This document shows, in pieces, positions 25 to 58,990 of a stretch of DNA of 64,000 nucleotides. Position numbers and translations under genes: made by a program. The first letter of the stretch is position 1. Every line of letters begins with the position of its first letter. Source of the stretch: Mobula hypostoma. Taxonomy: Eukaryota. Location of the stretch: NCBI RefSeq assembly GCF_963921235.1, contig NC_086108.1, positions 43,526,001-43,590,000 of the forward strand, given 5' to 3'. The notes beneath the pieces were generated by a model, which saw only the letters and a list, made by a program, of their open reading frames with translations, did not search any database and had not been told where the DNA came from.

Positions 25-598
25 TGGCCTCCTCTACTGTCGAGATGAAGTCACACATTTTAATTCCACATCCCATTCTGATATGTGAATCCACGGCCTC
101 CTCTACTGTAGAGATGAAGCCACACTCAGGTTGGAGGAACAACACCTTATATCCCGTCTGGGTAGCCTCCAACCTGATGGCAGTTTCTCTAACTTCCGTT
201 AATGCCCCTCATCCCCTTATATAGATATAAAATTTCCTTTTTTTCCCCTCTCTCACTTTTTTCTCTCTCTGTCCCTCTCACTATAACTCCTTGCCCATCC
301 TCTGGGCTCCCCTCTCCCTTTCTTTCTCCCAAGACTTCCCGTCCCATGATCCTCTCCCTTCTCCAGCCTTGTATCCCTTTTGCCAATCAACTTTACAGCT
401 CTTGGCTCCACCCCTCCCCCTCCTGTCTTCTCCTATCATTTCAGATCTCCCCTTCCCCCTCCCACTTCCAAATCCCTTACTAGCTCTTCTTTCAATTCGT
501 CCTGACGAAGGGTCTTGGCCCGAAATGTCGACTGTACCTCTTCCTATAGATGCTGCCTGGCCTGCTGCGTCCACCAGCATTTTTATGTGTGTTGCTCG
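25..598 (+). mobile_element. Penelope-like element 3' fragment (GIY-YIG C-terminus + pyrimidine-rich UTR + hammerhead-bearing pLTR)
   Basis: One frame reads HFNSTSHSDM*IHGLLYCRDEATLRLEEQHLISRLGSLQPDG, the C-terminus typical of PLE GIY-YIG endonucleases. Flanked by a 10-bp duplication gagatacagt (15-24, 599-608). Bases 26-56 are repeated at 96-126. Confidence 0.8.
498..533 (+). ncRNA. Minimal type I hammerhead ribozyme motif
   Basis: cgtc-CTGACGA(502-508)-A-GGGTCTTGGCCC-GAAA(522-525)-TGTC-gact. Helix I gtc/gac, helix II GGGT/GCCC, GUC cleavage triplet. Confidence 0.7.
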
Positions 599-940
599 GA
601 GATACAGTGAAAGGTTTTTGCTTGCATGTCATTCGGATATATTATTCGGCAAGGAAGTGGATGGAGCTAATACATAAAACAAAACAGAATCCAGAATATA
701 GTGTTAGAGAGAATGTGCGGTGCAGGCTGATAAAGAAAGTGCAAAGACCGTGACTAAGGAACTTGGGAAATCAAGAGATTATCTTTCAGTGTATGAGAGG
801 TGCGATACGGTAAAATGGAAGCTGTCCTTTAGTAATTGCCTGCTAAGTTTGGAATGCATTTCAAAGCTAAATGTTATACTTGACGATCAGACAGTGTGAA
901 ATATTGCCTGAGAGCGTACCCAGTTTAAGGTGAAAAGTGT

Positions 941-1135
941 AAACTGAAAATGGTGGAAGCACTCCGCAGGTCAGGCAACATCTGTAGGAGGGGAAACAGG
1001 GTTAACATTTCAGTCAGCAGATCTTTGGCGGGGTCTCTGATACCTTCGCTATAACGTTAACTCCGTTTCTCTTTTCACAGGCGCTGACTGGCCTGCTGGC
1101 TGTTGCCACCATTTTGAAGTTTTATTTCAGATTTC
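941..1135. mobile_element. Old degenerate palindromic PLE-derived element
   Basis: aaaatggtggaagcactccgcaggtcaggcaacatctgt...gttaac is mirrored by gttaac...acaggcgctgactggcctgctggctgttgccaccatttt, matching the arm sequence of the younger copies. The ribozyme core is lost. Confidence 0.55.
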
Positions 1136-1249
1136 CCGTACTTCCAGGTCTATTTCTTAAGGAAATAAATTTAAGCACCGTGAGGCGATTGTAAAAAGTC
1201 GGGCGCAAGTGGAACATCAAAATTTCCACGTCACTGCACCAGTTCGAGT

Positions 1250-1367
1250 GGGCACAGGATGGTAGGGGTATGATCCGGGTGCAGGTCGGTGGGAGTAGGT
1301 GTTTAACTAGTTCGGCATGGACTAAATGGGCCTGTTTCTCTGCTGTATTTTTCTATGAACCTATGAC
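1250..1367 (+). mobile_element. CR1 LINE 3' UTR fragment
   Basis: gggtgcaggtcggtgggagtagg...ttcggcatggactaaatgggcctgtttctctgctgta resembles the CR1 tail at 13370-13475. Confidence 0.55.
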
Positions 1368-1399
1368 AGTTTTCGCTTTTATAGGAACGTCGTTTTTAC

Positions 1400-7400: not shown

Positions 7401-8048
7401 CCCTTTGCGATCCTAAGTACCTAGATCCAGATCACAGACTCCAGGGTTTAGTAAATCCTAGAGTGTTCAACCAAAATCAAATGCTGGAGATACTGAAAAA
7501 CTAAAAACAAGCAGAGTAGAGATGAAAGGCTCCCAAACTGAAACATTTACTGTTTCTCTCCTCATTAATACTGCATGACCTGCTAAGTATTACCATCATT
7601 TTCGGTTTTCATTTCAGATTTCTTTTATTTGTGGTTTTCGGCTTTTTTGCGAACTCTAGGTGCCATTCCTGCAGTCCATTGGCCTGATGTTTGTGGTCCA
7701 CATGGTCAACTCTCCATCCCCGTATCTCACTCACATACAATGGGCAGAGGAATTTCCTCCAGGTCACAAATACATGGCCAGAGGAAAATATCCAGAGAAA
7801 AACAAAAGAGGAGTCTTTGGAACACTGGGACTGGAACGATTGGTTATGAACTCAATCATGGTTCAAGGCAAAATTGGTGATAGTAGGATTAAGAAAAAAG
7901 AAACAAGAGATAGATCCAGATGAGATATAGTTTCAACAGGACAAAAATGTCTACAACAGGAATTCTGCAGATGCTGGAAATTCAAGCAACATATATCAAA
8001 GTTGCTGGTGAACGCAGCAGGCCAAGCAGCATCTATAGGAAGAGGCGC

Positions 8049-8084
8049 AGTCGACGTTTCAGGCCGAGACCCTTCGTCAGGACT
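8049..8084 (-). ncRNA. Minimal type I hammerhead ribozyme motif
   Basis: Reverse complement reads agtc-CTGACGA-A-GGGTCTCGGCCT-GAAA-CGTC-gact. Confidence 0.72.
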
Positions 8085-8098
8085 AACTGAAGGAAGTT

Positions 8099-8134
8099 AG
8101 TCCTGATGAAGGGTCTCGGCCTGAAACGTCGACT
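8099..8134 (+). ncRNA. Minimal type I hammerhead ribozyme motif
   Basis: agtc-CTGATGA(8103-8109)-A-GGGTCTCGGCCT-GAAA(8123-8126)-CGTC-gact. Confidence 0.72.
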
Positions 8135-8494
8135 GCGCCTCTTCCTATAGATGCTGCTTGGCCTGCTGCGTTCACCAGCAACTTTGATATATGTTACAAA
8201 AATGTCTGTTTGTTTATTTTTCTGTCTCTGTTTAAAATGATATATCTCTAACATCATTAATATCAGATGACCAGTGGCTATACATATTAGTTGTCTTTCT
8301 CTCTCCTGGCCTGATCTGCTGACATTTTTTTCTATTTCCAGTTATGAACACTCACATTGCTTTTGCTCCTCTGTTTTATTAACTACAGACTGCAGGTCAT
8401 TGAAGTGATTTATTTTCCAGTTGGAATTAACTTCATCAAATACTGAATTCCACAGTTTCTCTGAAGGCCGAGAGAACTTTGTATAAACACAAAC

Positions 8495-8627
8495 ATAAGA
8501 GATTTTGCAGATACTGGAAATCCAAAGCACCACACACAAAATGGCAGAGGAACTCAGCAGGTCTGGCATCAGCTATGGAAGTTAATAAATAGTCTACATT
8601 TTGGGCAGAGACCTTTCATTGGGACTG
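8495..8627 (-). mobile_element. Degenerate single PLE pLTR arm
   Basis: gagattttgcagatactggaaatcc...aactcagcaggtctggcatc...gagacctttcattgggactg. The ribozyme core is decayed. Confidence 0.6.
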
Positions 8628-10400: not shown

Positions 10401-10543
10401 CAGTCTACAAAATATCTCGTTCTTGCTTTAATAAACCAAGTCTGCTGAACGGATATGAGACTTGCTGTTTCCATTTTGTAATTAAGGATGTGCAAGAGGC
10501 CAGAACTGGGGAAATGCAAAGAATTTTAGGGGATTGTTCGGCT

Positions 10544-10994
10544 GGATATTATAGATAGGGAGGATAAGGTTATGGATATTATAGAGATAGGGAGGATAAC
10601 GTTATGGATATTATAGAGATAGGGAGGATAACATTATGGATATTATAGAGAGAGGGAGGATAAGGTTATAGATATTATAGAGATAGGGAGGGTAACAATA
10701 TGGATATTATAGAGATAGGGAGGATAACGTTATGGATATTATAGAGAGAGGGAGGATAAGGTTATGGATATTATAGAGATAGGGAGGGTAACATTATGGA
10801 TATTATAGAGATAGGGAGGATGACGTTATGGATATTATAGAGAGAGGGAGGATAAAGTTATGGATATTATAGAGATAGGGAGGGTAACATTATGGATATT
10901 ATAGAGATAGGGAGGATAACGTTATGGATATTATAGAGAGAGGGAGGATAAGGTTATGGATATTATAAAGATAGGGAGGATAACGTTATGGATG
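10544..10994. repeat. 32-bp minisatellite, about 14 copies
   Basis: Unit ggatattatagagatagggaggataacgttat with patterned variants. Confidence 0.95.
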
Positions 10995-14346: not shown

Positions 14347-14735
14347 AAGAGATTCTGCTGAAGCAGGCCATCCAGAGGAACACACAGAAAATACTGGAGG
14401 AACTCATCAGGTCAGTCAGCATCTATTGAAATGAATAACCAATGGATGTTTCGGGGACACGAGGAAGTCTGCAGATGCTGGAAATTCAAGCAACACACAC
14501 AAAAAATGCTGGTGAACGCAGCAGGCCAGGCAGCATCTATAGGAAGAGGTACAGTTGACGTTTCAATTCCTCTTACTAGCTCTTCTTTCAGTTAGTCCTG
14601 ACGAAGGGTCTTGGCCCAAAACATCGACTGTACCTCTTCCTAGAGATGCTGCCTGGCCTGCTGCGTTCACCAGCATTTTTTGTGTGTGTTGGATGTTTCG
14701 GGGGCCCAGACCCTTCATCAGGACTGGAAAGGAGG
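14347..14735 (-). mobile_element. Older PLE pLTR arm, split by a younger PLE insertion
   Basis: Arm 14347-14456 resumes after 14703 (gcccagacccttcatcaggactgg). The reconstructed minus strand reads CTGATGA-A-GGGTCTGGGCCCC(C)-GAAA-CATC. Confidence 0.75.
14457..14689. mobile_element. Palindromic PLE-derived element, nested
   Basis: Inverted arms with a 14-bp TSD tggatgtttcgggg (14443-14456, 14690-14703). The plus-strand hammerhead has GAAA changed to AAAA. Confidence 0.85.
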
Positions 14736-15149: not shown

Positions 15150-15241
15150 AGGAAAACAGGCAAAGTGCTGGAGCAGTTCAGCAGGCCAGGCTGTGTGGAA
15201 ATACAAAGTCGACGTTTGGGCCCAAGACCCTTCATTAGGAC
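15150..15241 (-). mobile_element. Degenerate PLE pLTR arm
   Basis: gtgctggagcagttcagcaggccagg...gtcgacgtttgggcccaagacccttcattaggac. The core is mutated to CTAATGA. Confidence 0.6.
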
Positions 15242-17692
15242 AAGCTCACTGTGGCTTGAAATTCATCCAGTCACGAATGTTTGAATGAGATGAGATCATA
15301 CTACCGACTCGCCGATGCTTTGGCATTATTAAATGAAAGAGAATGAACCTCCAGGTTCAATTTTAATTTTAAATTGTTAATTTATTTTTCGGGCTCTATG
15401 CTTTGCTGGCAAAAGCAGCAGTCCGTCTGATGAAGATATTCCAAATGGGTGAGGTGATCTGTCCTGCTTTTTGCACACCGAACATACCTGGAAATTTTTT
15501 TTTATCACATTGCCTGTTACTTGTCAGCCTTGTCGCTGCACTGGAACAGTGTTTGCAGAGGTGTAGCTGGTTTGGGAGTGCATGTCTGTGTATGTTTCAA
15601 CATTGTCTTTAGCAATTGCATGCTGGACTCTGTTGATATTGAGGACAGAGCCTTCTCTTCCTGTTTAGTAATTAACTGCTCACTGGCAGATGTATTCGGA
15701 GAGCAAACTTCAGCCTGGTCTGTGGTGGTGAGGTCACTGTCAGTTACAGGCTGCCTTTGCTACTTGCTAAGTTATTGCCTCATTATACTGGCGTCTCGTT
15801 GTTAGCATTGCCTAGTGCTGCCCTTGGCATGCCTTTCAACACCGGCTACTGCCTCAAGGTTGATTGGCTGGTTTGATGTTAATGGTGGAGTGAAGGATGT
15901 GAGGTTATAAGTTGTGGTGGAATGAATTTGTGCTGCTGATCTTCCAGAGTAACCTGCGATTGCCCAGCTTGCTTTACCAATTGTAGCTCTTCGCCCTGCA
16001 ACTGTGAAGATGGGATTTTGTTTCCACAAGGGTTGTGTGGCGGTCGCTTCCCTCAATATCACAGACAGATGAACATACCGCAGGGACTGAAACAGACAGA
16101 TAAATATACAGTTGAATTCAAAAGTTTACATACACCTTAGCCAACTACATTTAAACTCAGTTTTTCACAATTCGTGACATTTAATCCTAGAAAACATTCC
16201 CTGTCTTAGGTCAGTTAGGATCACTACTTTATTTTAAGAATGTGAAATCTCAGAATAATAGTAGAGAGAATGATTTATTTCAGCTTTTATTTCTTTCATC
16301 ACTTTCCCAGTGGGTCAGAAGTTTACATACACTTTGTTAGTATTTGGTAGCATTGCCTTTAAATTGTTTAACTTGGATCAAACGTTTTGGGCAGCCTTCC
16401 ACAAGCTTCTCACAGTAAGTTGCTGGAATTTTGTTCCATTCCCCCAGACAGAACTGGTGTAACTGGGTCAGGTTTATAGGCCTCCTTGCTCTCACACGTT
16501 TTTTCAGTTCTGCCTACAAATTTTCTAATGGATTGAGGTCAGGGCTTTGTGATGGCCACTCCAATACCTTGACTTTGTTGTCCGTAAGCAATTTTATAGA
16601 CAATAGACAATAGGTGCTGGAGTAGGCCATTCGGCCCTTCGTGCCAACACCACCATTCACTGTGATCATGGCTGATCATCCACAATCAGTATCCAGTTCC
16701 TGCCTTATACCCATAACCTTTGATTCCGCTATCTTTAAGAGCTCTATCCATCTCTTTCTTGAAAGCATCCAGAGACTTGGCCTCCACTGCCTTCTGGGGC
16801 AGAGCATTCCACATATCTACCACTCTCTGGGTGAAAAAGTTTTTCTTCAACTCCATTCTAAATGGCCTACCCCTTATTCTTAAGCTGTGGCCTCTGGTTC
16901 TGGACTCACCCATCAGCGGGCATAGGCGGCCTTAGCTATGTTTCACCCGTTTCAACTGAAACAGGCCCCGCACTCTCAGGGGCCCCCGACTGACATGCAA
17001 AAATTTAATGCACAGCTCACAGACGCCACAATATTCTCCTACTACTTCCAGCTGAACCACGTGGGTGCTCGCTGACTGACATCTGAGAAAATACATTAAA
17101 ATATTTACTTCACTTGTAAACATTGCTCCTAGCAAAGAAGGCTACTTTTCAATGAGAGGAAAATGAAACGCTCCTATCCTAGTGGTGCTGAAAAACGGAA
17201 AATATTAGACAACAAAACAAAACATCTAAATAGTCTCCCAAAAGTTACATCTTTCTTTGGTCCAGCATCTGTAAAAGGCCCGTCGACTGCAGTTGCTGCT
17301 GCACCATTGTTACAGCATGGGTCTGCAGTGCCAAGTGACAGTGTAAGTGATACAGGACATGCTGATAATCAGAGCAATGAAAATGAGAAGAACAATTCTA
17401 CTCAAACAGATGGTGATAATGATGACCAAACTTTGTTTGATGAACAAGCACCACAGCATGATGACAGTCCTACAACTGAGACAGGTGAGGGAGATGCCCC
17501 CACCAGCACACCAGACAGAGAGAAAGCCCCACTAACATTCACAGAGACCGATCCAGCACATTGGCCAACGCATATTACCAGTGACCAACAGATCAACATT
17601 GTTAGGAGAGGTCCTATTCAGTTAGAGGACATTAACTTTCCACAGAGCCAATCACGCCGTCGTTTTACCAAGGACAGATATCTTATGAAGAT

Positions 17693-18556
17693 TGTGACGA
17701 GAATACACATAAAATTAAGATGTTTGCTGGCCTAGGTTAGCATCAGTGACATCAGCAAGTGGTCTGCCACCTGCCCTCAGGGGAAGGAGAGATAAGGAAC
17801 AATGGAGCAGCGTCTGGAGATGTGTAATGAAGGGACGTGGGAGAGAGAGCTGTCTGGAGCGGCTCCCCCTTTTGAACCCTGAACTGTTTGAAGTGATGGA
17901 CAGGTGATACCCCAGCAGGGGGATAAAAAGGGACCGGTTTGCTAAGGCAGGACACACACGCCACCCGAGGTAACGAGACCCTGGAAGCGGTACGCTTCTC
18001 ACGAGTCGGTGGGAAGTACCAGACAACGGCCAGGGTGGAAAAGTACGATCAGCGGGAACCTGGTGTGTGTCCGCCCTTGCCTGGGTGCCGGGTTTACTGC
18101 AGAGGATCGACCGCATCTGGAAGAGGGGTCACAGTCGGTGCCCTCAGGTGACATCACCAAGGACCTGCCCAAAAAGCTGCTTGTGAGCCATATCGTCGGT
18201 CTGTGAATGAAGCCGTGTCTGAATGATCAGTTGTTCCTGTTCTCTCTCTCTCTCCCCCCACGTTGTCCATCGCCATGGCAACGATTACTGCGAACTGAAC
18301 TACTAAACTGGACTGAAGTTTGAGTCACTTTGAAATTTGGTCATTTACCCCAAGACAACGATAGAGCTTGATTGATGCTGTTATCTTAATTCTGTGCACA
18401 TGTGTGTTTATAATCGCTGAACTGTTGCATTTATTATCCTTTCGATTACTGTGTTGCTTGTTTCTTTAATAAAACTTTCTTAGTTCTAGTACTCCAGACT
18501 CCAACTGAGTGATCCATTTCTGCTGGTTTGGCAACCCAGTTATGGGGTACGTAACA
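17693..18556 (+). mobile_element. Solo LTR related to the Gmr1-type Gypsy LTR
   Basis: Termini TGTGACG...CGTAACA with a 4-bp TSD agat (17689-17692, 18557-18560). AATAAA near 18468. Its 3' end resembles the reverse complement of the LTR terminus at 29826. Confidence 0.88.
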
Positions 18557-20093
18557 AGATGAAAAATGGAGAAACCATTCATAGGTCCTAGTTAGTGTAC
18601 TCAGAAACATCTGATTCAATCTTCTGTTTCTGCTGTACCCTATTTGGCAAGCGAAATCACAGTCTTACTTGCGGAGGTTTCAGAGTGTGGGAGCGACTCA
18701 CTCTCACACTCCAGGATCATGAGAAGTCAAATGCCAACATGGATAGCTGGCGCGAGCTGGAAACGTGCTTAAGAACGCACAGTGCCATTGACAGCACGTA
18801 CCAAGAAATGCAAATGCTGGAAAAAAAACACTGGAATGATGTCATGAAGAGGTTCATTGCCATAGTCTGTCACCTTGCAGAATGAAACCTTGCTTTCCGT
18901 GGCCACAATTCCACCCTACATGAATCAAATAATGGGAACTTTCCAGGCCTGGTGGAGCTGCTTGCCGAGTTCGACCCAGTGATGAGCAAACATGTCAGAT
19001 GAGCAGAGAAAAAAGAGATTGCTGACCACTACATGGGGAAAACCATACAAAATGAGTTAATCACACTTATTGGAGACAAGACACCGGAAGTGATAACAGA
19101 GAGAGTAAAACAATCACATTACTACTCGGTGACAATGGACTGCACCACTGATGCTGCACACATAGAGCAGCTCTCTGTGACACTGCACATTGTCACGTGC
19201 CAAGTAAATGTCGGAGCTACTGTTAGTGAGCATTTTGTCGGTTTCCTACCAGTGCTTGACACAACAGGTGCAGGCGTTACCGACATTTTCTTAACGCATA
19301 TGGAGAAGCTAGGATTAGATATCTCAAAATGCAGGGGGCAGGCATATGATAACGGGAGCAAACTGCAGGGGAAAAATAACGGGGTGCAGAAGAGGGTGCT
19401 ACATATTAACAAAAAAGCACTGATCATGCCATGCGCCAGCCACAGCCTAACCCTAGTCACTGTTGATGCTGCAAAATCAACAGCAGAGTCTGTGAGCTTC
19501 TTTGGGGTGCTGCAACGTCTAGACGCACTATTCAGCTCATCGACACAGAGATGGGAGCTTTTCAAGGAGAACGTGCCACAGATGACCCTCAACGCCATAT
19601 CCAACACGCGATGGGAGTGCCGCGTGGAAAGTGTGAAAGTCCTGCACTACCAGCTTCCCGATGTCGGCAATGCGCTCCTGTCACTGACTGAACATGCCAC
19701 ACAGAAAGGTGACAGTGAAACCACATCTGCAGCCAGAGGCCCAGAACAGGAGATCATGTCATGGAAATTCCTGCTGACTGTTATCATCTGGTACAATGTT
19801 TTACATGAGGTGGATCATGTCAACAAGCTGCTCCAGAGCCCACAAGTGGGAATCGATGTGCTACAGCGCGAGGTGGAATATGTTCGAAATTTCTCAAGGA
19901 ATACAGAGAGAACGGCCTTTCATCCACCCAAACAGATGCCAGAGACATAGCTGAAGAGATAGGGATGCCAATGGTCTTTCCTACTGCATGAATCAGAAAA
20001 CCAAAACGCCAGTTCCAGTACGAGTCCCAAAGTGCAGATCCTTCCCTGACAGTGGCACTCAAGGAACGGTACAAGAGAGAAGTTTTCCTTCCA

Positions 20094-21640
20094 GTCATAG
20101 TCATAGTCATAGTCATACTTTATTGATCCTGGGGGAAATTGGTTTTTGTTACAGTTGCACCATAAATAATAAATGGTAATAGAACCATAAATAGTTAAGT
20201 AGTAATATGTAAAGTATGCCAGTAAATTATGAAATAAGTCCAGGACCAGCCTATTGGCTCAGGGTGTCTGACCCTCCAAGGGAGGAGTTGTAAAGTTTGA
20301 TGGCCACAGGCAGGAATGACTTCCTATGACGCTCTGTGTTGCATCTCGGTGGAATGAGTCTCTGGCTGAATGTACTCCTGTGCCCACCCAGTACATTATG
20401 TAGTGGATGGGAGACATTGACCAAGATGGCATGCAACTTAGACAGCATCCTCTTTTCAGACACCACCGTGAGTGAGTCCAGATCCATCCCCACAACATCA
20501 CTGGCCTTACGAATGAGATTGCTGATTCTGTTGGTGTCTGCTACCCTCAGCCTGCTATCCCAGCACACAACAGCAAACATGATAGCACTGGCCACCACAG
20601 ACTCGTAGAACATCCTCAGCATCGTCCGGCAGATGTTAAAGGACCTCAGTCTCCTCAGGAAATACCAACGGCTCTGTCCCTTCTTGTAGACAGCCTCAGT
20701 GTTCTTTGACCAGTCCAGTTTATTGTCAATTCATATCCCCAGGTATTTGTAATCCTCCACCATGTCCACACTGACCCCCTGGATGGAAACAGGGGTCACC
20801 AGTACCTTAGCTCTCCTCAGGTCTACCACCAGCTCCTTAGTCTTTTTCCATTAAGCTGCAGATAATTCTGCTCACACCACGCGACAAAGTTTCCTACAGT
20901 AGCCCTGTACTCAACCTCATCTCCCTTGCTGATGCATCCAACTATGGCAGAGTCATCAGAAAACTTCTGAAGATGGCAAGACTCTGTGCAGTAGTTAAAG
21001 TCTGAGGTGTAAATGGTGAAGAGAAAGGGAGACAAGACAGTCCCCTGTGGAGCCCTAGTGCTGCTGATCACTCTGTCGGACACACAGTGTTGCAAGCACA
21101 CATACTGTGGTCTGCCAGTCAGGTAATCAAGAATCCATGATACCAGGGAAGCATTCACCTGCATCGCTGTCAGCTTCTCCCCCAGCAGAGCAAGGGCAGA
21201 TGGTGTTGAACACACTGGAGAAGTCAAAAAACATGACCCTCACAGCGCTCGCTGGCTTGTCCAGGTGGGCATAGACACAGTTCAGCAGGTAGACGATGGC
21301 ATCATTAACTCCTAGCCGGGGCTGGTAGGCGAACTGGAAGGGATCTAAGTGTGACCTGACCATAGGCCGGAGCAGCTCCAGAACAAGTCTCTCCAGGGTC
21401 TTCATGATGTGGGAGGTCAATGCCACCGGTCTGTAGTCATTGAGGCCGCTGGGGCGCGGCGTCTTCGGCACAGGGACGAGGCAGGACGTCTTCCAGAGCA
21501 CAGGAACCCTCCGGAGCCTCAGGCTCAGGTTGAATACATGGCGAAGTACTCCACATCGCTGAGGGGCACAGGCTTTGAGCACCCTGGTACTGACACCATC
21601 CTGTCCTGCAGCCTTGCTTGTGTTGAGACGTTTCGGCTGT
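20094..21640 (-). mobile_element. Rex1/Babar LINE, 5'-truncated, inserted in the hAT transposase
   Basis: RT motifs NDYRPVALTSHIMKTLERL, QFAYQP, FFDFSSVFNTI, APQGTVLSPFLF, QKFSDDSAIVG. Tail (gactat)n at 20094. Confidence 0.92.
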
Positions 21641-35646: not shown

Positions 35647-36148
35647 ACCCTGATGATGAGTTTCAAATATCTCACCCTCCCATTGTCACGAGTTCCAGTT
35701 CCTGAAGCAGTCACTATCCAGCGACTCTGTGGAATGAGGCAGCCATTGAATATGGTAGTTCACCAGTGTCTTCTCAAAGGAAATTAGGAATGACCTTGGA
35801 AACCAGTGAATGCTAATCATACCAGGGTTGAGTGGAGAAGCAGACAGCATTTTTCACACTGTATGACAAGTAGCCATGGTGTATTCAAGGATTACCGGAG
35901 CATGTAACAACATTAAGAGTCACTGACTTGAAACATCTTGCAATTAAATTACAACATAAACCAGATCGGTTGGCCCAAGCCATATCTGCCCGCTAAGCCA
36001 ACCTTCAATAGTCTCCTTTGGTAGAATGAATCGTTGCATTTAAGTCAAAAGTCTGCTTGCTCAGAGAGGATTAAGGTGTAATGGTTGACAACTGTACTAC
36101 GCAGAAGTTGATGTGTAGAAGGAAGTTGAACAGCAAGTGTTCAACATT

Positions 36149-36330
36149 AACTAGAGAACATCTGCAGATGCTGGAAATCCGAGCAACACACACAAAATGC
36201 TGGAGGACCTCAGCAGGCTAGGCAGCATCTGTGGAAAAGAGTACAGTTGACTTTTTGGGCTGAAACTGTACTCTTTTCCATAGATACTGGCTGGCCTGCA
36301 GGGTTCCTTCAGCATTTTGAGTGTGTTGCT
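36149..36330. mobile_element. Palindromic PLE-derived element with collapsed centre
   Basis: Inverted arms with a 14-bp TSD aagtgttcaacatt (36135-36148, 36331-36344). The ribozyme cores are missing at the symmetry centre. Confidence 0.82.
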
Positions 36331-37276: not shown

Positions 37277-37312
37277 AGTCGACGTTTCGGGCTGAGACCC
37301 TTCGTCAGGACT
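37277..37312 (-). ncRNA. Minimal type I hammerhead ribozyme motif (best-preserved copy)
   Basis: Reverse complement reads agtc-CTGACGA-A-GGGTCTCAGCCC-GAAA-CGTC-gact. Confidence 0.75.
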
Positions 37313-37967
37313 AACTAAAAGAAGAGCTAGTAAGAGGTTTGAAAGTGGGAGGGGGAGGGGGAGATCCAAAATGATAGCAGAAGACAGGAGGGGGAGGGAT
37401 GGAGCCAAGAGCTGGACAGTTGATTGGCAAAAGGAATATGAGAGGATCACGGGACAGGAGGCCTAGGGAGAAAGAAAAGGGGGAGGGGGGAAAAATCCAG
37501 AGGATGGGCAAGGGGTATAGTGAGAGGGACAGAGGGAGAAAAAGGAGAGAGAGAAAAAGAATGTGTGGCTTCATCTGATGAAGCCACACTCAGGTTGGAG
37601 GAACAACACCTTATATTCCGTCTGGGTAGCCTCCAACCTGATGGCATGAACATTGACTTCTCAAACTTCCACTAATGCCCCACCTCCCCCTCGTACCCCA
37701 TCCGTTATTTATTTATATACACACATTCTTTCTCTCTCTCTCCTTTTTCCCCCTCTTCCCTCTCACTATACCCCTTGCCCATCCTCTGGGTTCCCCCCCC
37801 CTTTTCTTTCTCCCTGGGCCTCCTGTCCCATGATCCTCTCATATCCCTTTTGCCAATCACCTGTCCAGCTCTTGACGCCATCCCTCCCCCTCCTGTCTTC
37901 TCCTATCATTTCGGATCTCCCCTTCCCCCTCCCACTTTCAAATCTCTTACTAACTCTTCCTTCAGTT

Positions 37968-38003
37968 CGTCCTGACGAAGAGTCTCGGCCTGAAACGTTG
38001 ACT
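37968..38003 (+). ncRNA. Hammerhead motif, partly decayed
   Basis: cgtc-CTGACGA-A-GAGTCTCGGCCT-GAAA-CGTT-gact. Helix II is weakened and the triplet is GUU. Confidence 0.55.
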
Positions 38004-38995
38004 GTACCTCTTCCTTTAGATGCTGCCTGGCCTGCTGCGTTCACCAGCAACTTTGATGTGTGTTGCTTAAAGAGAAAGAGACAATATTTTCTGTGTAGAA
38101 TTCTTCTCAATAGAATTAAGGAAAGATTTCTCCTTTCAAGTTGCTGTTTCACTTGTGAAATGTTCCAAGCATTTTCTAAATATTTGTCCTAGTTCAAAAT
38201 GTTATTTTGTTTAGATAGCTCTGTGACATACCTTAGATTTTTATATTGATCACTAAATAAAGGTAGATTATTGTTTGTATAGCTCAAAGTGACTTTGAAT
38301 CTCTTTTTGTCTCATAAAGAAATGTAAATAAATTTATACAATGCAGATGAAATGACTAGACACAGTTTCAGTCATTTGAAAGAGCTTGTACTGCATACAG
38401 ATCAAATCATTACACAACATATTGAAGTAGTACAAAATCTACTCCCACTATAGCGTATGGAAAAAGAAACTTATTTAGCTACGTATATAGTACCATTTGC
38501 TCGGGGGGAGGGGTGCTTGGACAGCTGACTCTTGTGACCCTTCTGCAAAACCGCATGAAGCATGAAGGTCTATTGCTGATGGCTGTCACCCAGCTAATCT
38601 AATCTTGACTTCATCTCGATTCCCTGTGTTTTCTCTCATGGCATCTCAGTCAGTACCATGGATCTCTGGCTCCTAGACCCTGTATCTCAGATTCCCTGCT
38701 CTGACACTAGAATCAGACAGACACTGCTCTGTGACTTCACAGAGATACTTATCTGGTTTCAGCATGAATACTTGGGACAATTCTGGTTGAGCCTTAGGCT
38801 GACACATTCTTCTCTGTCATTCCTTTTTCATAAATGGAATTTCTTCTCATTATTTTTCAGACATTATTTATATCCTCAGGAATGTGCAAAACACCTGAGA
38901 GCACATGCCAGCAGGCTCCTACCTCATTGTTATAAAACTATTGAGGGTTGTCTCATAAATGATGGAATACTGACCTCACAATCTGCTTTGTTACA

Positions 38996-42105: not shown

Positions 42106-43549
42106 AAGTAATTGGAATACTACTGTTTATATTAGGCAGTGTCATCACTTAATAAAGAACGTAGTCAATATTAGAAGCTAATATTTGGAAATGTTTTCTA
42201 TCATGATCAGAAAATTATTCTGTTCCAATTAACATTAACAGAGCCTATAGATATTATTTTTATGTTAATTCATCTATGTTCTTCAATGAGACTCGGAATA
42301 AGTCTCTTTCTTCTGACCCTTGCTCTGTCTTTAGTTATACACTTCCTTCTGTGGGGTCAGTCCTGCATAAAAACAGTCTCAGTCATTCATAAGAGAGTAG
42401 GCAGCAGGTTTAGTTGGCACCAGAATTAATTTCCACTGTGGCTTATAATAGTATTGTAATTCTGACAATCTTGTGTTCAGAATTTCTTGGCATTAGTGAA
42501 AATAAATGCCCTGAGGAACTCAGTATATCAGGCAGCAACTGAGGAGGGAAATGGACCTTTGGTGTTTCAGGTCAAGATCCCTTATCTGGTGCCTTCCTAT
42601 CATTGTTTAGTTCAGGCTCCAAACCTGTATTTAGACCCATGTGGACTGAACTATATCAGTCCCAGCCGCTGGGACTCTGGTGTTCCCTGAGTAACCCAGC
42701 AGGAGCGATGGATAGACTTTGTTCTCTTTCCAGGACATACAAGAAGAATGCCCATTAGTGAATCATTGTTTACAAAGGCTGCACTTTGCTATTGTACAAT
42801 AAGTAGCTTTTTGTTAGTTTTCTGAAAACAAGGTAACAAGTAAGAAGAATAGGTTATTTTGTGCCTCAAAGCGGCTTGTTGTCCAAATGGATCATGGCTC
42901 AGCTATCAGCTCATTGCCATCTACCTGCATTGATTCTGTCTTGCATACTCTCTGTAACTCTACAACCCTCATGAGTAGCATTCCAAAGATTCTCCTCTAT
43001 CTTCAGGGTGATAACATTTCTTTTTACCTCAGTCCTGAATGCCTAATTTACCAACTTCACTTTGAGATCATTGCACCTGCATCTAGACAGCTCGGGGAAA
43101 CATTATCTTTACATCTAAAATCAAAGCCGAGTTTATTGCCATTTGCACAAGTACATATGCCCACAAATGAAATGAAAAACTTACTTGCGGCAGTGTCATT
43201 GGGCACATGCATCAAATAAACAGCATTCATGAGGAAAACATTAAACACAATTTTCACAAGAAAACACAATTAGATAAAAAATATATGAAGTCCACTTTAG
43301 TGCAAAGTGGTTATAGTGTTGCTAAACTGTGGTGATTAGGGCATTGCCCATTGGTTCAAGAGCCAAATGGTTGTAGGCTGCTCTTCAGTATGGTGATGTG
43401 GGACTTCATGCTTCTGTACCTTTTGCGAGAAGATGGCATGGCCTGGATGGTGGAGATATTTGATGATAGATGTTGCTATCTTGAGGCAGCAGCTCCTGTA
43501 GATACTGTTGGCGGTGGAGAGGGATGTGCCCGTGTTTCTGGAGCTTCAT

Positions 43550-45702
43550 AGGGATTGAAGGTGGATATGCAATGGCAGGCATTTAAAGGTTGCATGGATG
43601 AACTACAACAATTGTTCATCCCAGTTTGGCAAAAGAATAAATCAAGGAAGGTAGTGCACCCGTGGCTGACAAGAGAAATTAGGGATAGTATCAATTCCAA
43701 AGAAGTAGCATACAAATTAGCCAGAGAAAGTGGCTCACCTGAGGACTGGGAGAAATTCAGAGTTCAGCAGAGGAGGACAAAGGGCTTAATTAGGAAGGGG
43801 AAAAAAGATTATGAGAGAAAACTGGCAGAGAACATAAAAACGGACTGTAAAAGCTTTTATAGATATGTAAAAAGGAAAAGACTGATAAAGACAAATGTAG
43901 GTCCCCTGCAAACAGAAACAGGTGAATTGATTATGGGGAGCAAGGACATGGCAGACCAATTGAATAATTACTTTAGTTCTGTCTTCACTAAGGAGGACAT
44001 AAATAATCTTCCAGAAATAGTAAGGGACAGAGGGTCCAGTGAGATGGAGGAACTGAGCGAAATACATGTTAGTAGGGAAGTGGTGTTAGGTAAATTGAAG
44101 GGATTGAAGGCAGATAAATCCCCAGGGCCAGATGGTCTGCATCCCAGAGTGCTTAAGGAAGTGGTCCAAGAAATAGTGGATGCATTAGTGATAATTTTTC
44201 AAAACTCGTTAGATTCTGGACTAGTTCCTGAGGATTGGAGGGTGGCTAATGTAACCCCACTTTTTAAAAAAGGAGGGAGAGAGAAACCGGGGAATTATAG
44301 GCTGGTTAGCCTAACGTCGGTGGTGGGGAAACTGCTGGAGTCAGTTATCAAGGATGTGATAACAGCACATTTGGAAAGCGGTGAAATGATCGGACAAAGT
44401 CAGCATGGATTTGTGAAAGGAAAATCATGTCTGACGAATCTCATAGAATTTTTTGAGGATGTAACTAGTAGAGTGGATAGGGGAGAACCAGTGGATGTGG
44501 TATATTTGGATTTTCAAAAGGCTTTTGACAAGGTCCCACACAGGAGATTAGTGTGCAAACTTAAAGCACACGGTATTGGGGGTAAGGTATTGGTGTGGGT
44601 GGAGAATTGGTTAGCAGACAGGAAGCAAAGAGTGGGAATAAACGGGACCTTTTCAGAATGGCAGGCGGTGACTAGTGGGGTACCGCAAGGCTCAGTGCTG
44701 GGACCCCAGTTGTTTACAATATATATTAATGACTTGGATGAGGGAATTAAATGCAGCATCTCCAAGTTTGCGGATGACACGAAGCTGGGTGGCAGTGTTA
44801 GCAGTGAGGAGGATGCTAAGAGGATGCAGGGTGACTTGGATAGGTTGGGTGAGTGGGCAAACTCATGGCAGATGCAATTTAATGTGGATAAATGTGAAGT
44901 TATCCACTTTGGTGGCAAAAATAGGAAAACAGATTATTATCTGAATGGTGGCCGATTAGGAAAAGGGGAGGTGCAACGAGACCTGGGTGTCATTATACAC
45001 CAGTCATTGAAAGTGGGCATGCAGGTACAGCAGGCGGTGAAAAAGGCGAACGGTATGCTGGCATTTATAGCGAGAGGATTCGAGTACAGGAGCAGGGAGG
45101 TACTACTGCAGTTGTACAAGGCCTTGGTGAGACCACACCTGGAGTATTGTGTGCAGTTTTGGTCCCCTAATCTGAGGAAAGACATCTTTGCCATAGAGGG
45201 AGTACAAAGAAGGTTCACCAGATTGATTCCTGGGATGGCAGGTCTTTCATATGAAGAAAGACTGGATGAACTGGGCTTGTACTCGTTGGAATTTAGAAGA
45301 TTGAGGGGGGATCTGATTGAAACGTATAAGATCCTAAAGGGATTGGACAGGCTAGATGCGGGAAGATTGTTCCCGATGTTGGGGAGGTCTAGAACGAGGG
45401 GTCACAGTTTGAGGATAGAGGGGAAGCCTTTTAGGACCGAGGTTAGGAAAAACTTCTTCACACAGAGAGTGGTGAATCTGTGGAATTCTCTGCCACAGCA
45501 AACTGTTGAGGCCAGTTCATTAGCTATGTTTAAAAGGAAGTTAGATATGGCCCTTGTGGCTACAGGGGTCAGGGGGTATGGAGGGAAGGCTGGGTTCTGA
45601 GTTGGATGATCAGCCATGATCATAATAAATGGCGGTGCAGGCTCGAAGGGCCGAATGGCCTACTCCTGCACCTATTTTCTATGTTTCTATCTATGTTTCT
45701 AT
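43550..45702 (+). mobile_element. Young 5'-truncated CR1 LINE
   Basis: Uninterrupted ORF2 segment followed by a CR1 3' UTR and a ctatgtttctat tail. Confidence 0.95.
43555..45600 (+). CDS. CR1 ORF2 reverse transcriptase domain (681 aa open, no endonuclease)
   Basis: KSPGPDG, NYRLVSLTS, QHGFVKGKSCLTNL, YLDFQKAFDKVPH, GVPQGSVLGP, SKFADDTKL, RPHLEYCVQFWSP. There is no true ATG start because the element is truncated. Confidence 0.85.
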   Translation: MKVDMQWQAFKGCMDELQQLFIPVWQKNKSRKVVHPWLTREIRDSINSKEVAYKLARESGSPEDWEKFRVQQRRTKGLIRKGKKDYERKLAENIKTDCKSFYRYVKRKRLIKTNVGPLQTETGELIMGSKDMADQLNNYFSSVFTKEDINNLPEIVRDRGSSEMEELSEIHVSREVVLGKLKGLKADKSPGPDGLHPRVLKEVVQEIVDALVIIFQNSLDSGLVPEDWRVANVTPLFKKGGREKPGNYRLVSLTSVVGKLLESVIKDVITAHLESGEMIGQSQHGFVKGKSCLTNLIEFFEDVTSRVDRGEPVDVVYLDFQKAFDKVPHRRLVCKLKAHGIGGKVLVWVENWLADRKQRVGINGTFSEWQAVTSGVPQGSVLGPQLFTIYINDLDEGIKCSISKFADDTKLGGSVSSEEDAKRMQGDLDRLGEWANSWQMQFNVDKCEVIHFGGKNRKTDYYLNGGRLGKGEVQRDLGVIIHQSLKVGMQVQQAVKKANGMLAFIARGFEYRSREVLLQLYKALVRPHLEYCVQFWSPNLRKDIFAIEGVQRRFTRLIPGMAGLSYEERLDELGLYSLEFRRLRGDLIETYKILKGLDRLDAGRLFPMLGRSRTRGHSLRIEGKPFRTEVRKNFFTQRVVNLWNSLPQQTVEASSLAMFKRKLDMALVATGVRGYGGKAGF

Positions 45703-47895: not shown

Positions 47896-48228
47896 TGTCA
47901 TAGTCCGGTCCGTAAAGTCCGTATTCCGGTTCACGGTCCGGTCCATCGACCCTTGCTCCAGGTTTTCCTATCTACCCTGTTTCTGTCTTGTTGAGCTCTA
48001 ATTGAGCCAGCTGATGCTAGTTGGGGCTGGCTGCATAAATACCTTCAGAGACCAGGGTGTGGCTGCTGGATTGTTCTTGTCTTTACTCTGTCTTCTGTTT
48101 CCTTGCTTGAAGCCCTGCCTTGTCTTGCCGGTAACTCTTGCCTCACCTGAAGTTCTCGTCTTGCCTTGCTTTGCCAGTAGCCTTGCCTTGTCTTGCTGTC
48201 TGGTCCTGGAGCCACCCTGTACCTAGCT

Positions 48229-48453
48229 CCCTTCCTGTCCCTTGCCTCCGCCCAGGTGAGTCAGGCTGTCTTGCTGTTACCTGGGGTTGGTTCTGTCCCT
48301 TCCTGTCCCTTGCCTCTGCCCAGGTAATCCAGGCCGTCTTGCTGTTACCTGGGGTTGGTTCTGTCCCTTCCTGTCCCTTGCCTCTGCCCAGGTAATCCAG
48401 GCCATCTTGCTGTTACCTGGAGTTGGTTCTGTCCCTTCCTCTCCCTTGCCTCT
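48229..48453. repeat. 68-bp tandem repeat, about 3.3 copies
   Basis: Units start at 48229, 48297, 48365 and 48433 (cccttcctgtcccttgcctc...). Confidence 0.9.
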
Positions 48454-48536
48454 GTTGGGTGGTGATCTGCACCCTGCCCAGGAGGATCCAAGCCTCGCCT
48501 CAAGTCTCAAGTCTCCTGTCTCTGGTCTCCAGCCCG

Positions 48537-48874
48537 CAGCCCCGCCTGTAGCCTCGTGTCTCCAGCCCCGCCTGTAGCCTCGTGTCTCCAGCCCCGCCTG
48601 TAGCCTCGTGTCTCCAGCCCCGCCTGTAGCCTCGTGTCTCCAGCCCCGCCTGTAGCCTCGTGTCTCCAGCCCCGCCTGTAGCCTCGTGTCTCCAGCCCCG
48701 CCTGTAGCCTCGTGTCTCCAGCCCCGCCTGTAGCCTCGTGTCTCCAGCCCCGCCTGTAGCCTCGTGTCTCCAGCCCCGCCTGTAGCCTCGTGTCTCCAGC
48801 CCCGCCTGTAGCCTCGTGTCTCCAGCCCCGCCTGTAGCCTCGTGTCTCCAGCCCCGCCTGTAGCCTCGTGTCTC
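48537..48874. repeat. 26-bp minisatellite, 13 identical copies
   Basis: Unit cagccccgcctgtagcctcgtgtctc; 338 bp equals 13 x 26. Confidence 0.95.
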
Positions 48875-50529
48875 CAGCGCCTTGCCAAGCCAAGTCTCTA
48901 GCCTCTAGCCTGAAGATTCCAGCCTCGTCCTGCCTGCCTGCCAAGCCTCATCCTTGCCTAGTTCTGGGGCCCGAGCCAGAGGCAAGACCCAGGTACTGGT
49001 TCCTTGTCCAGTCTCTGGCTCGGAGTCCAAGCCCGGGCTCCTAGCTCTTTTGTCCAGTCCTGTTCCAGGTTCCTGGTTTTCCTGTCCATGTCCTTGCCAT
49101 CGCCCTGTATTCTAGTCCTGTCCCTAGTACTTCAGTGTCTGTGTCTTGCACTTGGGTCCGTTCCCAGCTGTGCCCTTATGACAATGTGAGACTGTCTTTC
49201 AATTTCTTGTATAGCTCAGGGTTTGGATCTATACAAGAAATCACATGTTTGTGTGGCAGCCAACCTGGTTTGCTGTTGTTGGATGCACTCCACAAATATT
49301 CCAATATTTTGCAATAATTTTGCTGGTCTGGTTTCTGACAGACGCAGAACACAGTGAGTTCATATCTCTTTAAAGAAGTGAACTTTTAGATGTATTTACT
49401 GCAGTACTGAAAAGCACCTCATTCCTGCGATGAGGCAATAAACAAAACCCTGTTTAACCTCTCAGAGACATGTAACTTATCCCATGTGATTTCCCAACAG
49501 AAGGAGAGGTGATACTTCCACGTTCGCTGATGATACAAGATGACCAGAGTTCTAAAAATGTTTTAAAGGAGATGACAAGATAGGTGAGTGGGCAGGATCT
49601 TGACAGATGAAAGATAATATGGAAAAATGTTCTTGAAAAATACTGGGCCAGATCTTGTTGGCTAATGCCAGCAGTGTCAACAGGCATGCACAGCCTAATG
49701 TGGATGTTTCTGGTTTGGAGTCCCGCAGCCACAGGCAGTGTTGCTCAGTTTTCCCAGTGGTTATGCTGGGGCATTACCTTCTAGATTTGGTGCCAGGATC
49801 TGACCACCCCACCAGTTTCAATGGTGATTGTAAGGTATTCAGTAGCAAAAGTACTTAAAAAATGTTGAACTATTTTTGGTTAGTCATTGTTTTGAAGTGT
49901 TTCTCATTCTTTTTAATGTTCTTTTAAATTTTAAATGATTTTTAAGATTTTAAAATTATTTATTTCAGTTTTCATAGCTTTCCTTAATATTTTTGAATGC
50001 CATGGACAAAACAAACTATAAAGAAAAAAATTCCTTCCAGCTTTTACAACTGGATTTTGCTGTGGTCAACAGAGAATGTAACATAAGACACAGTAGATGG
50101 TGAATTGGTGATTGGATAGATAGCAGAATGGGATCTTTCTCAAGTTGACAGGTTGTGGTCAGTGAGATATCACTGGGATCAGTTTAGGTTAATCAATATC
50201 TACATTCAGACCAGGAAAGCACAAGTGTGGGGAAATGGGAAGTGATTCAACATGGGGAGTTGGCCAACAAGGTCTTGTCCTTAAATTCTTCTACCATTTG
50301 GTCTTTCGGAAACAGTGAAAGTACATACCCCAATAATGCATAACGCAGGTATGAAGACCCCTCTCATGTTACAGATGAGAAAATGTCCTTCATGTATTGA
50401 CCATTTAGACACTTCTCATCATCATCCTCACTTTCCAACTGCCTTCAATCACTTCTTAAATTCTTAGATATTCTTAGAATACAAGAATTGTTCTCAGAAT
50501 ACAATATTCATTTATTATTTAGTTAGTTT

Positions 50530-55794: not shown

Positions 55795-57514
55795 TAAGGC
55801 CTTGGCAGACAGGATTAAGGAAAACCCCAAGGCATTCTACCAGTATGTGAAGAGCAAGAGGATAAGACGTGAGAGAATAGGACCAATCAAGGGTGACAGT
55901 GGAAAAGTGTGTATGGAACCGGAGGAAATAGTGGAGGTACTTAATGAATACTTCAGTATTCACTATGGAAAAGGATCTTGGTGATTGTAGGGATGACTTG
56001 CAGCAGACTGAAAAGCTTGAGCATGTAGATATTAAGAAAGATGTACTGGAGCTTTTGGAAAGCATCAAGTTGGATAAGTCACCGGGACCAGACGGGATGT
56101 ACCCCAGACTACTGTGGGAGGTGAGGAAGGAAATTCCTGAGTCTCTGGTGATGATCTTTGCGTCATCAATGAGGATGGGAGAGGTCAGAAACTATAGGCC
56201 AGTGAGTCTTACTTCAGTGGTTGGTAAGATGATGAAGATCCTGAGAGGCAGGATTTATGAACAGTTGGAGAGGCATAATGTGATTAGGAATAGTCAGCAT
56301 GGCTTTGTCAAAGGTAGGTCGTGCCTTACGAGCCTGATTGAATTTTTTGAGGATGTGACTAAACACATTGATGAAGGTAGAGCCGTAGATGTAGTGTATA
56401 TGGATTTTAGCAAGGTATTTGATAAGGTACGCCTTATTGAGAAAGTAAGGAAGCATGGGATCCAAGGAGACATTGCATTGTAGATCCAGAACTGGCTTGC
56501 CCACAGAAGGCAAAGAGTGGTTGTAGATGGGTCATATTCTGCATGGAGGCCAGTTATCAGCGGTGTGCCTCAGAGATCTGTTCTGGGACCCCTACTCTTA
56601 GTGATTTTTATCAATGACCTGGATGAGGAAGTGGAGGGATGGGTTAGTAAATTTGCTGAAGACACAAAGGTTGGGGGTGTTGTGGATAGTGTGGAGGACT
56701 GTCAGAGGTTACAATGGGACATTGATAGGATGCAAAACTGGGCTGAGAAGTGGCAGATGGAGTTTAACCCAGATAAGTGTGAGGTGGTTCATTTTGGTAG
56801 GTCAAATATGATGGCAGAATATAGTATTAATGGTAAGACTCTTGGCAGTGTAGAAGATCAGAGGGATTTTGGGTTCTGAGTCCATAGGACACTCAAAGCT
56901 GCTATGCAGGTTGACTCTGAGGTTAAGAAGGCGTATGGTGCATTGGCCTTCATCAGTCGTGGGAGTGAGTTTAAGAGCCAAGAGGTAATGTTGTAGCTAT
57001 ATAGGGCCCTGGTCAGACCCCACTTGGAGTACTGTGCTCAATTCTGGTCGCCTCACTACAAGGAGGACGTGGAAACCGTAGAAAGGGTGCAGAGGAGATT
57101 TACAAGGATGTTGCCTGGATTGGGGAGCATGCCTTATGAGAATAGGTTGAATGCACTCTGCCTTTTCTCCTTGGAGCAACGGAGGATGAGAGGTGACCTG
57201 ATAGAGGTATTCAAGATAATGAGAGGCATTGACCGTGTGGATAGTCAGAGGCTTTTCCCCAGGGCTGAAATGGCTAGCATGAGAAGGCATAGTTTTCTGG
57301 TGCTTGGAAGTAGGTGAGTGCATGGAATGGGCTGCCAGCGGCGGTGGTGGAGGCGGAAACGATAGGATCTTTTAGGAGACTCCTGGATGGCTGCATGGAA
57401 CTTAGAAAAATAGAGGGCTATGGGTAAAGCCTAGGTAGTTCTAAGGTAGGGACATGTTCGGCACAGTTTTGTGGGCCAAAGGGCCTGCATTGTTCTGTAG
57501 GTTTTTTGTTTCTA
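55795..57514 (+). mobile_element. CR1 LINE, 5'-truncated, frameshifted RT
   Basis: KSPGPDG, QHGFVKGRSCLT, SGVPQRSVLGP, SKFAEDTK, EYCAQFWSP, then a 3' UTR. Confidence 0.92.
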
Positions 57515-57696
57515 ATGCTCCTGATACCACAATCAAGTGCAATTATTTTTCTTTTATTTTCTTATTTAATTTATAAATTGAAGTTAACATTATTCATATT
57601 TGTCACATTTGTAACGCACTGTGCAAAACATTAATATTCACGGCATTTATACCCTGGCTAAGTAAGCCTTTAACAATAAATTTGAACTTGCCTTTA

Positions 57697-58226
57697 CCTG
57701 CTGTACCTAATAAAGTGGCCACGAAGTGTATTCGTGATCTTCTGATTCTGTTGCTCATCTACTTCAAGGTTCAACATGTTGTGCATTCAGAGATGCTCTT
57801 CTGCACACCACAGTTGTAACTTGTGGTTATTTGACTTACAGTTGCCTTTCTGTCAGCTTGAAACAGTCTGGCCATTCTCCTCTGATCTCCCACATTAACA
57901 AGTCATTTTTGCTGTCAGAACTGCCTCTCACAGGGTGTTTTAAAAAAAATTTCACACCCTTTCCTCTAAACTCTAGAGACTGTAGTGTGTGAAAATACCA
58001 GGAAATCTTCAGTTTCTGAGATACTCAAACCACCCTGTCTGGCACCAACAATCATTCCATGGTCCAAGTCACTTAGATCACACTTCTTCCCCATTCTGAC
58101 ATTTGTTTGAACAGCAAATGAACACCTGGACCATGTCTGCATGCAATGAGTCACTGCTAGATGATTGGTGATTAGATATTTGCATTGATGAGCAGGTGTA
58201 CAGGAGTACCTAATAAAGTGTCCACT
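57697..58226 (-). mobile_element. Tc1-derived non-autonomous element remnant
   Basis: Repeated gtacctaataaagtg(g/t)cc motifs. ORF 57966-58154 reads MGKKCDLSDLDHGMIVGARQGGLSISET, a Tc1 HTH start. Confidence 0.7.
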
Positions 58227-58667
58227 AAATGTTCGTCAAGAGCAGTCATTCACACCTCCACATAGTTGCCATAGCCAAGAAAGCTCATCTGTGTCTCTGC
58301 TTCCTCAAAGGGAAAGAAATGTTTCTTTTCATCCTTTGGCATGTTTCCTTTGATACTCACCAACATATATTGAAGCATCGTAGAAAATGTCCAATCCAGA
58401 TGCATCACAGCTTGGAATGGCAAGTGGTCTGCCCAGGATCACAGGAAACTGCAGAGAGTTGTGGGCACAGCTCAGCACACCCTCCCTCTGTGACTTGATC
58501 AATAATTTTCGCTGCCTCTGTAAAGTAGCTAGCATAATAAAATTTCCCATCCACCCTAGACATTCACCTTCCCCCACTGTCCCATCGAGCAAAAGATACA
58601 AAAGCCTGAAAGCACAGTTCACTAAGTTCAAAGGCAGCTTCTATTGATAAGTATAATGTAGATAAGT

Positions 58668-58990
58668 AACACAGACAAAATGCTGGAGGAACTCAGCAGA
58701 CCAGGCAGCATCTATGGAAAACAGTTGACATTTTAGACTGAGACCCTTCATCAGGACTGGAAAAAAGAGATTAGAAGGTGGGACGAAGTACAAGGTAGTA
58801 GGTGATTGGTGAAACTGGAAGAGGGGAAAGGGTGGTAAGGAACTGGGAAGTCAATTGGTGAAAGAGATAAAGGGCTGGAGAAGGGGGAATCTGATAGGAG
58901 AGGACAGAAGGCCATGGAGCAAAGGAAGGGGGATGAGCACCTCAGGGAGGTGAGCAGGTAAGGGGATAAGGTGAGTGAGGAAAAATTGGA
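58668..58990 (-). mobile_element. PLE pLTR arm with decayed hammerhead, followed by purine-rich UTR
   Basis: aaaatgctggaggaactcagcagaccaggcagcatc...gagacccttcatcaggactgg. It appears to resume near 59782 after a CR1 insertion. Confidence 0.7.

Follow-up and report, generated by a model that had tools for sequence, protein, structure and literature searches.

A 64-kb window of the Mobula hypostoma genome (64,000 nucleotides; contig NC_086108.1, positions 43,526,001 to 43,590,000) carries twelve insertions that are probably 5'-truncated, decaying copies of a very-high-copy Penelope-like element (PLE), with head-to-head pairs formed from separately primed cDNAs. The insertions were found with a profile built from 11 arms of the window, with the reversed window as control. 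Nineteen matches had E ≤ 1, and the 18 with E ≤ 1.2e-4 make up the 12 insertions, around one per 5 kb. Seven of the 18 are arms outside the training set (E 3.6e-16 to 1.2e-4), and the best E in the reversed window was 0.51. A preliminary description of this DNA had counted at least ten copies, a figure that our search bears out, and every arm position that it listed coincides with a profile match. The labels A to I (including A2, B0 and C0) were assigned in the present analysis, and all coordinates are those of the window.

Insertion E consists of two arms enclosed by a single target-site duplication (TSD). The tailed arm (37177-37575, minus strand) comprises a tail (37177-37211), a hammerhead motif (37276-37313), pseudo-long terminal repeat (pLTR) sequence and, at the junction, a 13-bp mirror of the start of the other arm (37563-37575), joined to the tailed arm through a shared 5-nt word. 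The tail-less arm (37577-38068, plus strand) holds the last 33 endonuclease codons, pLTR sequence and a second motif (37967-38004) in which helix II is broken. Across 303 aligned positions these two arms show 24 differences. Family-wide data for these sites came from contigs of four public runs (X1, X5, X9 and X13, the last possibly RNA; three organism labels, A to C) mapped on one E arm. Eight of the differences are changes on the tailed arm, six of them at sites where the other letter is found in at least 94% of the family and two of them CpG decays, and nine are not among the family variants listed (there are 21 further rows). Seven lie at sites where both letters reach at least 14% in organism A; of those seven, five are non-CpG. 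Four of the five non-CpG segregating letters do not exceed 1% in organism C. The four lineage-specific derived letters are all on the tail-less arm, none being on the tailed arm. The discordant sites cover around 200 nt (37263-37464). Five non-CpG segregating differences were seen where 0.3-1.2 would be expected (Poisson P between 1e-5 and 8e-3); both the post-insertion rate of 17/606 and the 15-36 segregating sites are assumed values. Furthermore, the single non-CpG difference between the arms of insertion C also falls at a segregating site. Under self-priming as put forward by Arkhipova 2013 (PMC3846280; this and the other papers cited are drawn on in part), the two arms would be expected to be identical at insertion. 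The data from E favour two cDNAs primed separately, each from its own template copy, rather than a self-priming fold-back, a preference that rests on one insertion.

The arms also differ at their ends. Each of the four clean palindromes (B, C, D and E) has exactly one tail, of 35 nt in B, 34-36 nt in C, 33 nt in D and 35 nt in E. On the coordinates of the E tailed arm, the ends of the tail-less arms fall within 37212-37217, and those of the tailed arms within 37177-37181. The old pair A2, judged by eye, has one tail too, on its right-hand, plus-strand arm. The solo arms are mixed, F and C0 having a tail and A, G, H and I having none. In all four runs long heterogeneous loose ends cluster at 37175-37179 (the rows listed hold 220-361 contigs each for X1, X5 and X9 and 64 for X13), implying that the distal end is family-wide; one tail per palindrome is established within the window copies. 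The stereotyped tail end of the preliminary description is thereby supported. Its asymmetry between the arms is also real, with the tail measuring 33-36 nt instead of 25-35 nt and the tailed arms reaching 10-15 nt beyond the end that it quoted; its rule that the inverted arm is the longer one can be put into words only where an arm reaches the open reading frame (ORF), namely in A and E.

The search for TSDs used ranges set by hand at provisional element ends and a null of 300 random position pairs per locus. Exact TSDs are present at five of the 12 loci, each equalled by 0 of 300 random pairs: 10 bp at A (15-24 and 599-608), 12 bp at B (7941-7952 and 8196-8207) and 14 bp at C (14443-14456 and 14690-14703), D (36135-36148 and 36331-36344) and E (37163-37176 and 38069-38082). 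The five TSDs of 10-14 bp reported earlier are therefore upheld. At the other seven loci (A2, B0, F, C0, H, I and G) no TSD above chance was found (28/300 to 262/300), the 6-bp terminal repeat of F being not significant (28/300). Inside the palindromes the two arms overlap at the junction by 2 nt in B, 4 nt in C, 2 nt in D and 5 nt in E.

A mechanism can be proposed in which each end of a 10-14 nt staggered cut would prime its own cDNA. One cDNA would start at the distal site and give the tailed arm, and the other would start at the proximal site and give the tail-less arm. Both would stop early and be joined by 2-5 nt of microhomology, with the joining in E following a 13-nt snap-back. The two templates could be a pair of RNAs bound by an enzyme dimer, or else two pLTRs that have diverged within a single tandem RNA. 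That head-to-head PLE insertions routinely arise in this way, from two reverse transcription events on two templates, one per target end, with one start always at the distal and the other at the proximal site, we put forward tentatively, as a possibility with somewhat less than an even chance. In the twin priming of L1 elements both target ends prime cDNA, and joining by microhomology yields an inversion inside one TSD. In twin-primed L1 insertions the arms come from separate stretches of one RNA without overlap, whereas here the same 70-350 nt is present in both arms, so that two template copies, strand displacement or a fold-back would be needed. For PAc, the Poseidon element of Anolis carolinensis, Frangieh 2024 (PMC11167929) reports that the enzyme nicks and extends both target strands, with a dimer predicted, and that reverse transcription starts at two internal sites, which correspond to the tail ends. 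We also note a 9-bp stem (37195-37264, minus strand) that most tailed arms can form between the region 18-26 nt past the cleavage site and the central part of the tail. It comes from the consensus fold of six tailed arms, shows no compensatory change and is, as a lead only, a possible counterpart of the stem-loop at which reverse transcription of PAc starts.

The assignment of the arms to PLEs comes from the two copies that reach coding sequence. A 48-residue frame at 56-199 in insertion A, read through one stop, matched eight of 12 candidate proteins, the best being Mobula hypostoma protein P0004 (E 5e-15, 79%) and the next Hypanus sabinus proteins. In insertion E, 37574-37726 matches P0004 at 86% and runs beyond the stop into the pLTR. 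P0004 has a YIDD motif, a CX4CxxC linker and two cysteines within GIY-YIG, and the longer relatives (85 matches among 3112 candidates) carry RVT_1, the reverse transcriptase (RT) domain, together with GIY-YIG. By a simple pattern, the CX2-5CxxC linker between RT and endonuclease (EN) is present in P0004, P0005, P0008 and 47 of the 85 longer relatives. The CCHH motif inside GIY-YIG that characterises EN-positive PLEs was found through database relatives of the window peptides. According to Craig 2021 (PMC8557442), the CX2-5CxxC linker is a trait of Neptune and Nematis, and Penelope and Poseidon are without it; its presence in the relatives hence points to a Neptune or Nematis type rather than to Penelope or Poseidon. 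Judged by these matches, the arms are end-fragments of an endonuclease-positive PLE with a Neptune/Nematis-type linker. Both the PLE identity and the physical link of two copies to a GIY-YIG C-terminus had been proposed before, and both are supported here by matches to ray proteins with RT and GIY-YIG. Only A and E contribute PLE-coding sequence to the window, in the form of the last 33-48 codons. A Pfam scan of three short window peptides gave no family, and a protein search with the open frame across hammerhead and tail, which is a weak test, gave no candidate. A Hypanus sabinus gene model named "ATP synthase subunit C3-like" (P0006) ends in the same PLE endonuclease C-terminus, which may be either an exonised PLE or an annotation artefact.

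Several points weigh against our reading of the insertions. On the side of identity, P0004 reaches only E 4.6e-4 against Pfam GIY-YIG, the ray proteins score 18.8-20.9 bits, below the cut-off of 22.6, and the protein searches found no full-length or intact ORF of the arm family, the full-length relatives being at most 52% identical. On the side of priming, the proximal end is absent among the loose-end rows listed (24, with 1609 further rows). Frangieh 2024 (PMC11167929) saw the same start-site usage on both strands, and with no strand difference in start site nothing published in the parts drawn on forces one tail per insertion. The arms of B differ at only 1 of 101 sites, form a clade with support of 98/97 and share variants that are absent from the list of common family variants, a pattern compatible with one template. 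In addition, an approximately unbiased (AU) test run on 129 columns that cover three of the five markers does not reject the E arms as one clade (p = 0.20).

The closeness of the B arms and the AU result are consistent with an origin from a single template, where the cDNA primes itself or folds back, or one RNA is primed twice and a strand is displaced, in which case the discordance in E would be due to later ectopic gene conversion or recurrent mutation. The 13-bp palindrome at the E junction is the signature of self-priming in Arkhipova 2013 (PMC3846280), and the copy number would be high enough to make gene conversion plausible. The spread of the discordance in E, with all four lineage-specific variants on one arm, and the position of the sole non-CpG difference in C argue against a single template, and the identity of the B arms may stem from homogenisation in a nearly spacer-less palindrome. 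We regard a single template as unlikely, though worth keeping in view, and prefer separately primed cDNAs.

The hammerhead of the family is a minimal type I motif: helix I has 5 bp and helix II 4 bp, helix III is missing, and A9 is followed by an extra A. Both core boxes are kept in four of 11 aligned motifs (0 in 100 shuffles). The motif at 37276-37313 in the E tailed arm is the only fully canonical one, with a predicted cut after 37281, and the other ten depart from the canonical form at 1-7 positions. Nine of the 11 have the extra A after CUGANGA; the exceptions, I and B0, are without a recognisable core, so that the earlier statement that the A follows every recognisable core stands. A search at the Rfam gathering threshold gave no hits, and exact-motif scans of metagenome and viral contigs gave no loci.

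We then considered whether these dispersed motifs are working ribozymes under selection, with self-cleavage shaping the integration product. The motif does fit the published minimal hammerhead, helices I and II are pairable in 84% of cells compared with 12-41% when slid, the tail-less arm of D starts (36265) 0-1 nt past the predicted cleavage site, and the PAc motif cleaves in the presence of protein (Frangieh 2024, PMC11167929). Set against this, 0 of 9 pairs are changed on both sides in the 11 motifs, which are few and closely related, and pairing is at least as good as in the real motifs in 381 of 500 shuffles. Folding z-scores bearing on this question are -0.6 to +0.6, and over the single-sequence folds of the motif and of the downstream region, none better than shuffles, z runs from -1.2 to +0.6. 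In six young motifs, 11 of the 60 cells at CpG have changed, compared with 8 of the 222 cells elsewhere (Fisher P 3e-4), and all three loop changes lie at CpG columns, hence the loop variation is decay. The selection on helix II implied earlier by a variable loop and a persistent stem is thus not supported, and the same is true of a "ribozyme family" in the sense of working copies, given one canonical motif in 11 and cleavage that is predicted only. As a cause of the arm starts cleavage was rejected, one of the eight starts in the four palindromes lying at the cut site, which is about chance.

Population data point the same way. U at position 11.1 (window 37289) accounts for 45% of depth in organism A and 43% in organism B, with the CpG change at its partner at 12% and 11%, respectively, while organism C has the two at 19% and 20%. 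All of these values are contig counts weighted by depth and not copy counts. It seems that a subfamily with a G10.1-U11.1 pair has been amplified in organisms A and B and not in C, which speaks against working ribozymes kept by selection and is in line with the finding that PAc hammerhead mutants insert in vitro all the same (Frangieh 2024, PMC11167929). Selected ribozymes of this kind are therefore very improbable, and we infer that the hammerheads are passengers of the pLTR that decay neutrally after insertion.

With respect to abundance, 114,068 contigs of one run align to the arm, with a summed depth of around 1e7 compared with 9.5 on the flank. Depth on the arm does not equal copy number, and these values support the very high copy number suggested previously. 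The copies in the window fall into three subfamily strata, with decay within each, rather than into the continuous "age series" first described. Measured from the majority of the young arms (A, B, C and E), those arms themselves diverge by 4-8%, the middle group (D, F, G, C0 and H) by 26-32%, with 16-36% between its members, and A2, B0 and I by 38-47% when a 42-nt piece that aligns poorly is set aside. Age is overstated by such distances. In the arm tree two of 14 branches are starred. A contig of organism B spans the left junction of E, hence E is older than that split; contigs of organism C reach the flank only to around 37120 and are uninformative on E there.

Insertion A (25-598, plus strand) is a solo tail-less arm with the end of the endonuclease ORF, pLTR sequence and a hammerhead motif (497-534, plus strand) carrying C15.2>U. 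Its GIY-YIG C-terminus (56-202, plus strand) is broken, with 48 codons and one in-frame stop, and 25-56 is a short direct re-copy of 95-125. In the two copies that reach the ORF, A (25-57) and E (37563-37567), rearrangement has occurred at one shared 5-nt word close to where the endonuclease ORF ends, by the direct short re-copy in A and by the mirror and a jump into the pLTR in E. Three palindromes accompany E. B (7953-8195) has a tailed arm at 7953-8096 (minus strand) and a tail-less arm at 8095-8195 (plus strand) that are 1% apart, with G10.1-U11.1 in both motifs. C (14457-14689) has a tailed arm at 14457-14564 (minus strand), a tail-less arm at 14561-14689 (plus strand) and a hammerhead core broken through CpG decay. 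D (36149-36330), of the middle stratum, has a tailed arm at 36149-36266 (minus strand) and a tail-less arm at 36265-36330 (plus strand).

The other insertions are older or single. A2 (935-1146) is a head-to-head pair of an old subfamily with a partial tail on the right arm only. B0 (7480-7620, plus strand) contains an old-subfamily arm at 7521-7602 with a partial tail and a possible left arm that aligns poorly. Among the middle-stratum solo arms, all on the minus strand, F (8486-8627) is tailed with a broken core, C0 (14344-14735) is tailed and split by C within its own hammerhead 3' core, H (15150-15249) is tail-less with a broken core, and G (58661-58990) is tail-less with a long pLTR part and a broken core. 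I (42504-42589, minus strand) is a strongly decayed solo arm. The young C sits in the 3' catalytic box of the older C0 hammerhead (14443-14703), and the 14 bp of its TSD duplicate part of that box; this single case could reflect self-targeting, or chance at such a density.

Short palindromes might also be read as a self-propagating, non-autonomous family, akin to miniature inverted-repeat transposable elements (MITEs) or to retrozymes, and hammerhead-bearing non-autonomous PLE derivatives have been described in vertebrates (2026 retrozyme preprint). Junction and arm lengths differ in each of the four palindromes, and no tandem array of the unit is present among 11 tandem-repeat rows, tandem units being what defines retrozymes. 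We give such a family next to no weight and retain truncated PLE insertions as the source of the palindromes.

Other repeats surround these copies. A long terminal repeat (LTR) retrotransposon at 29826-35598 has LTRs of around 870-900 bp that are 97% identical. Its gag-like ORF matches SCAN and zinc-knuckle domains, and an integrase is found upstream of short RT/RNase H remnants on the minus strand. Pieces of a hAT-type transposase (17133-22164; DUF4371, hAT dimerisation) are split by a fragment of a long interspersed nuclear element (LINE) at around 20230-21640. LINE 3' fragments at 20233-21026 and 27324-28118 are 91-96% identical, inverted and around 6.5 kb apart, and a CR1-like LINE has a 682-codon open RT frame at 43552-45600, with many shorter relatives across the window. 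Tandem arrays lie at 48228-48878, where a 68-mer (x3.3) adjoins a 26-mer (x13.2) whose units are 100% identical, and at 10543-10993 (32-mer, x14.2).

Much of this agrees with described PLEs. The CUGANGA/GAAA core, the absence of helix III, the short helix I, the extra nucleotide between 9 and 10.1 and the occurrence mostly as dispersed solo copies, thousands per genome, match the hammerheads in pLTRs of metazoan PLEs of Cervera and de la Pena 2014 (PMC4209133), who give the extra nucleotide 9/10.1, G10.1-C11.1 and a palindromic 15.2-16.2 pair as conserved traits. Helix II has 4 bp here in contrast to 7-8 bp in the Schistosoma hammerheads of that paper, and G10.1-U11.1 is common in the Mobula lineage whereas G10.1-C11.1 is listed there as highly conserved. 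The 5'-truncated head-to-head arm, the TSD around the whole unit and the junction palindromes are those of PLEs with inverted pLTRs (PMC3846280, PMC8557442, PMC2377424), in which the tail is 30-40 bp (34-37 bp in Penelope) and often at one end only. TSDs are 10-14 bp here and 8-10 bp in the Adineta examples of Arkhipova 2013 (PMC3846280), where inversion is ascribed to self-priming, compared with the apparent two templates in insertion E. As in PAc (PMC11167929), the hammerhead lies just upstream of two fixed ends with the tail between them, and the flanks at the distal end are AT-rich. Unlike PAc, the family has the CX2-5CxxC linker that Penelope and Poseidon lack, and the part of that paper drawn on has no model for inverted copies. 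In comparison with PAc, no protein starting in the hammerhead region of the arm family was found, in what is a weak test. We found no two-template or twin-priming model for PLE inversions in the open literature, on which earlier papers and supplements may bear.

The minimal hammerhead, the extra A, the one-sided 30-40 bp tail, the inverted 5'-truncated arm and the TSDs are accordingly all published PLE features, and the novelty implied by the preliminary description does not hold for the extra nucleotide, the one-sided tail or the inverted truncated arm, which are already in print. What seems to go beyond the literature found is the discordance of the E arms, with its apparent copying from two source copies. 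The formation of the inverted structures is a step of the PLE cycle that is termed undefined in the literature drawn on. If the two-template reading is true, subfamily discordance from arm to arm would be a genomic read-out that distinguishes two-template priming from a self-priming fold-back. With its intermediate-frequency markers and very many insertions, this family permits a count of how often a pair of arms stems from different templates, and of whether the tail status of one end is coupled to that of the other. In the same way, the G10.1-U11.1 lineage provides a natural test of whether PLE mobility in vivo needs a fully canonical hammerhead.

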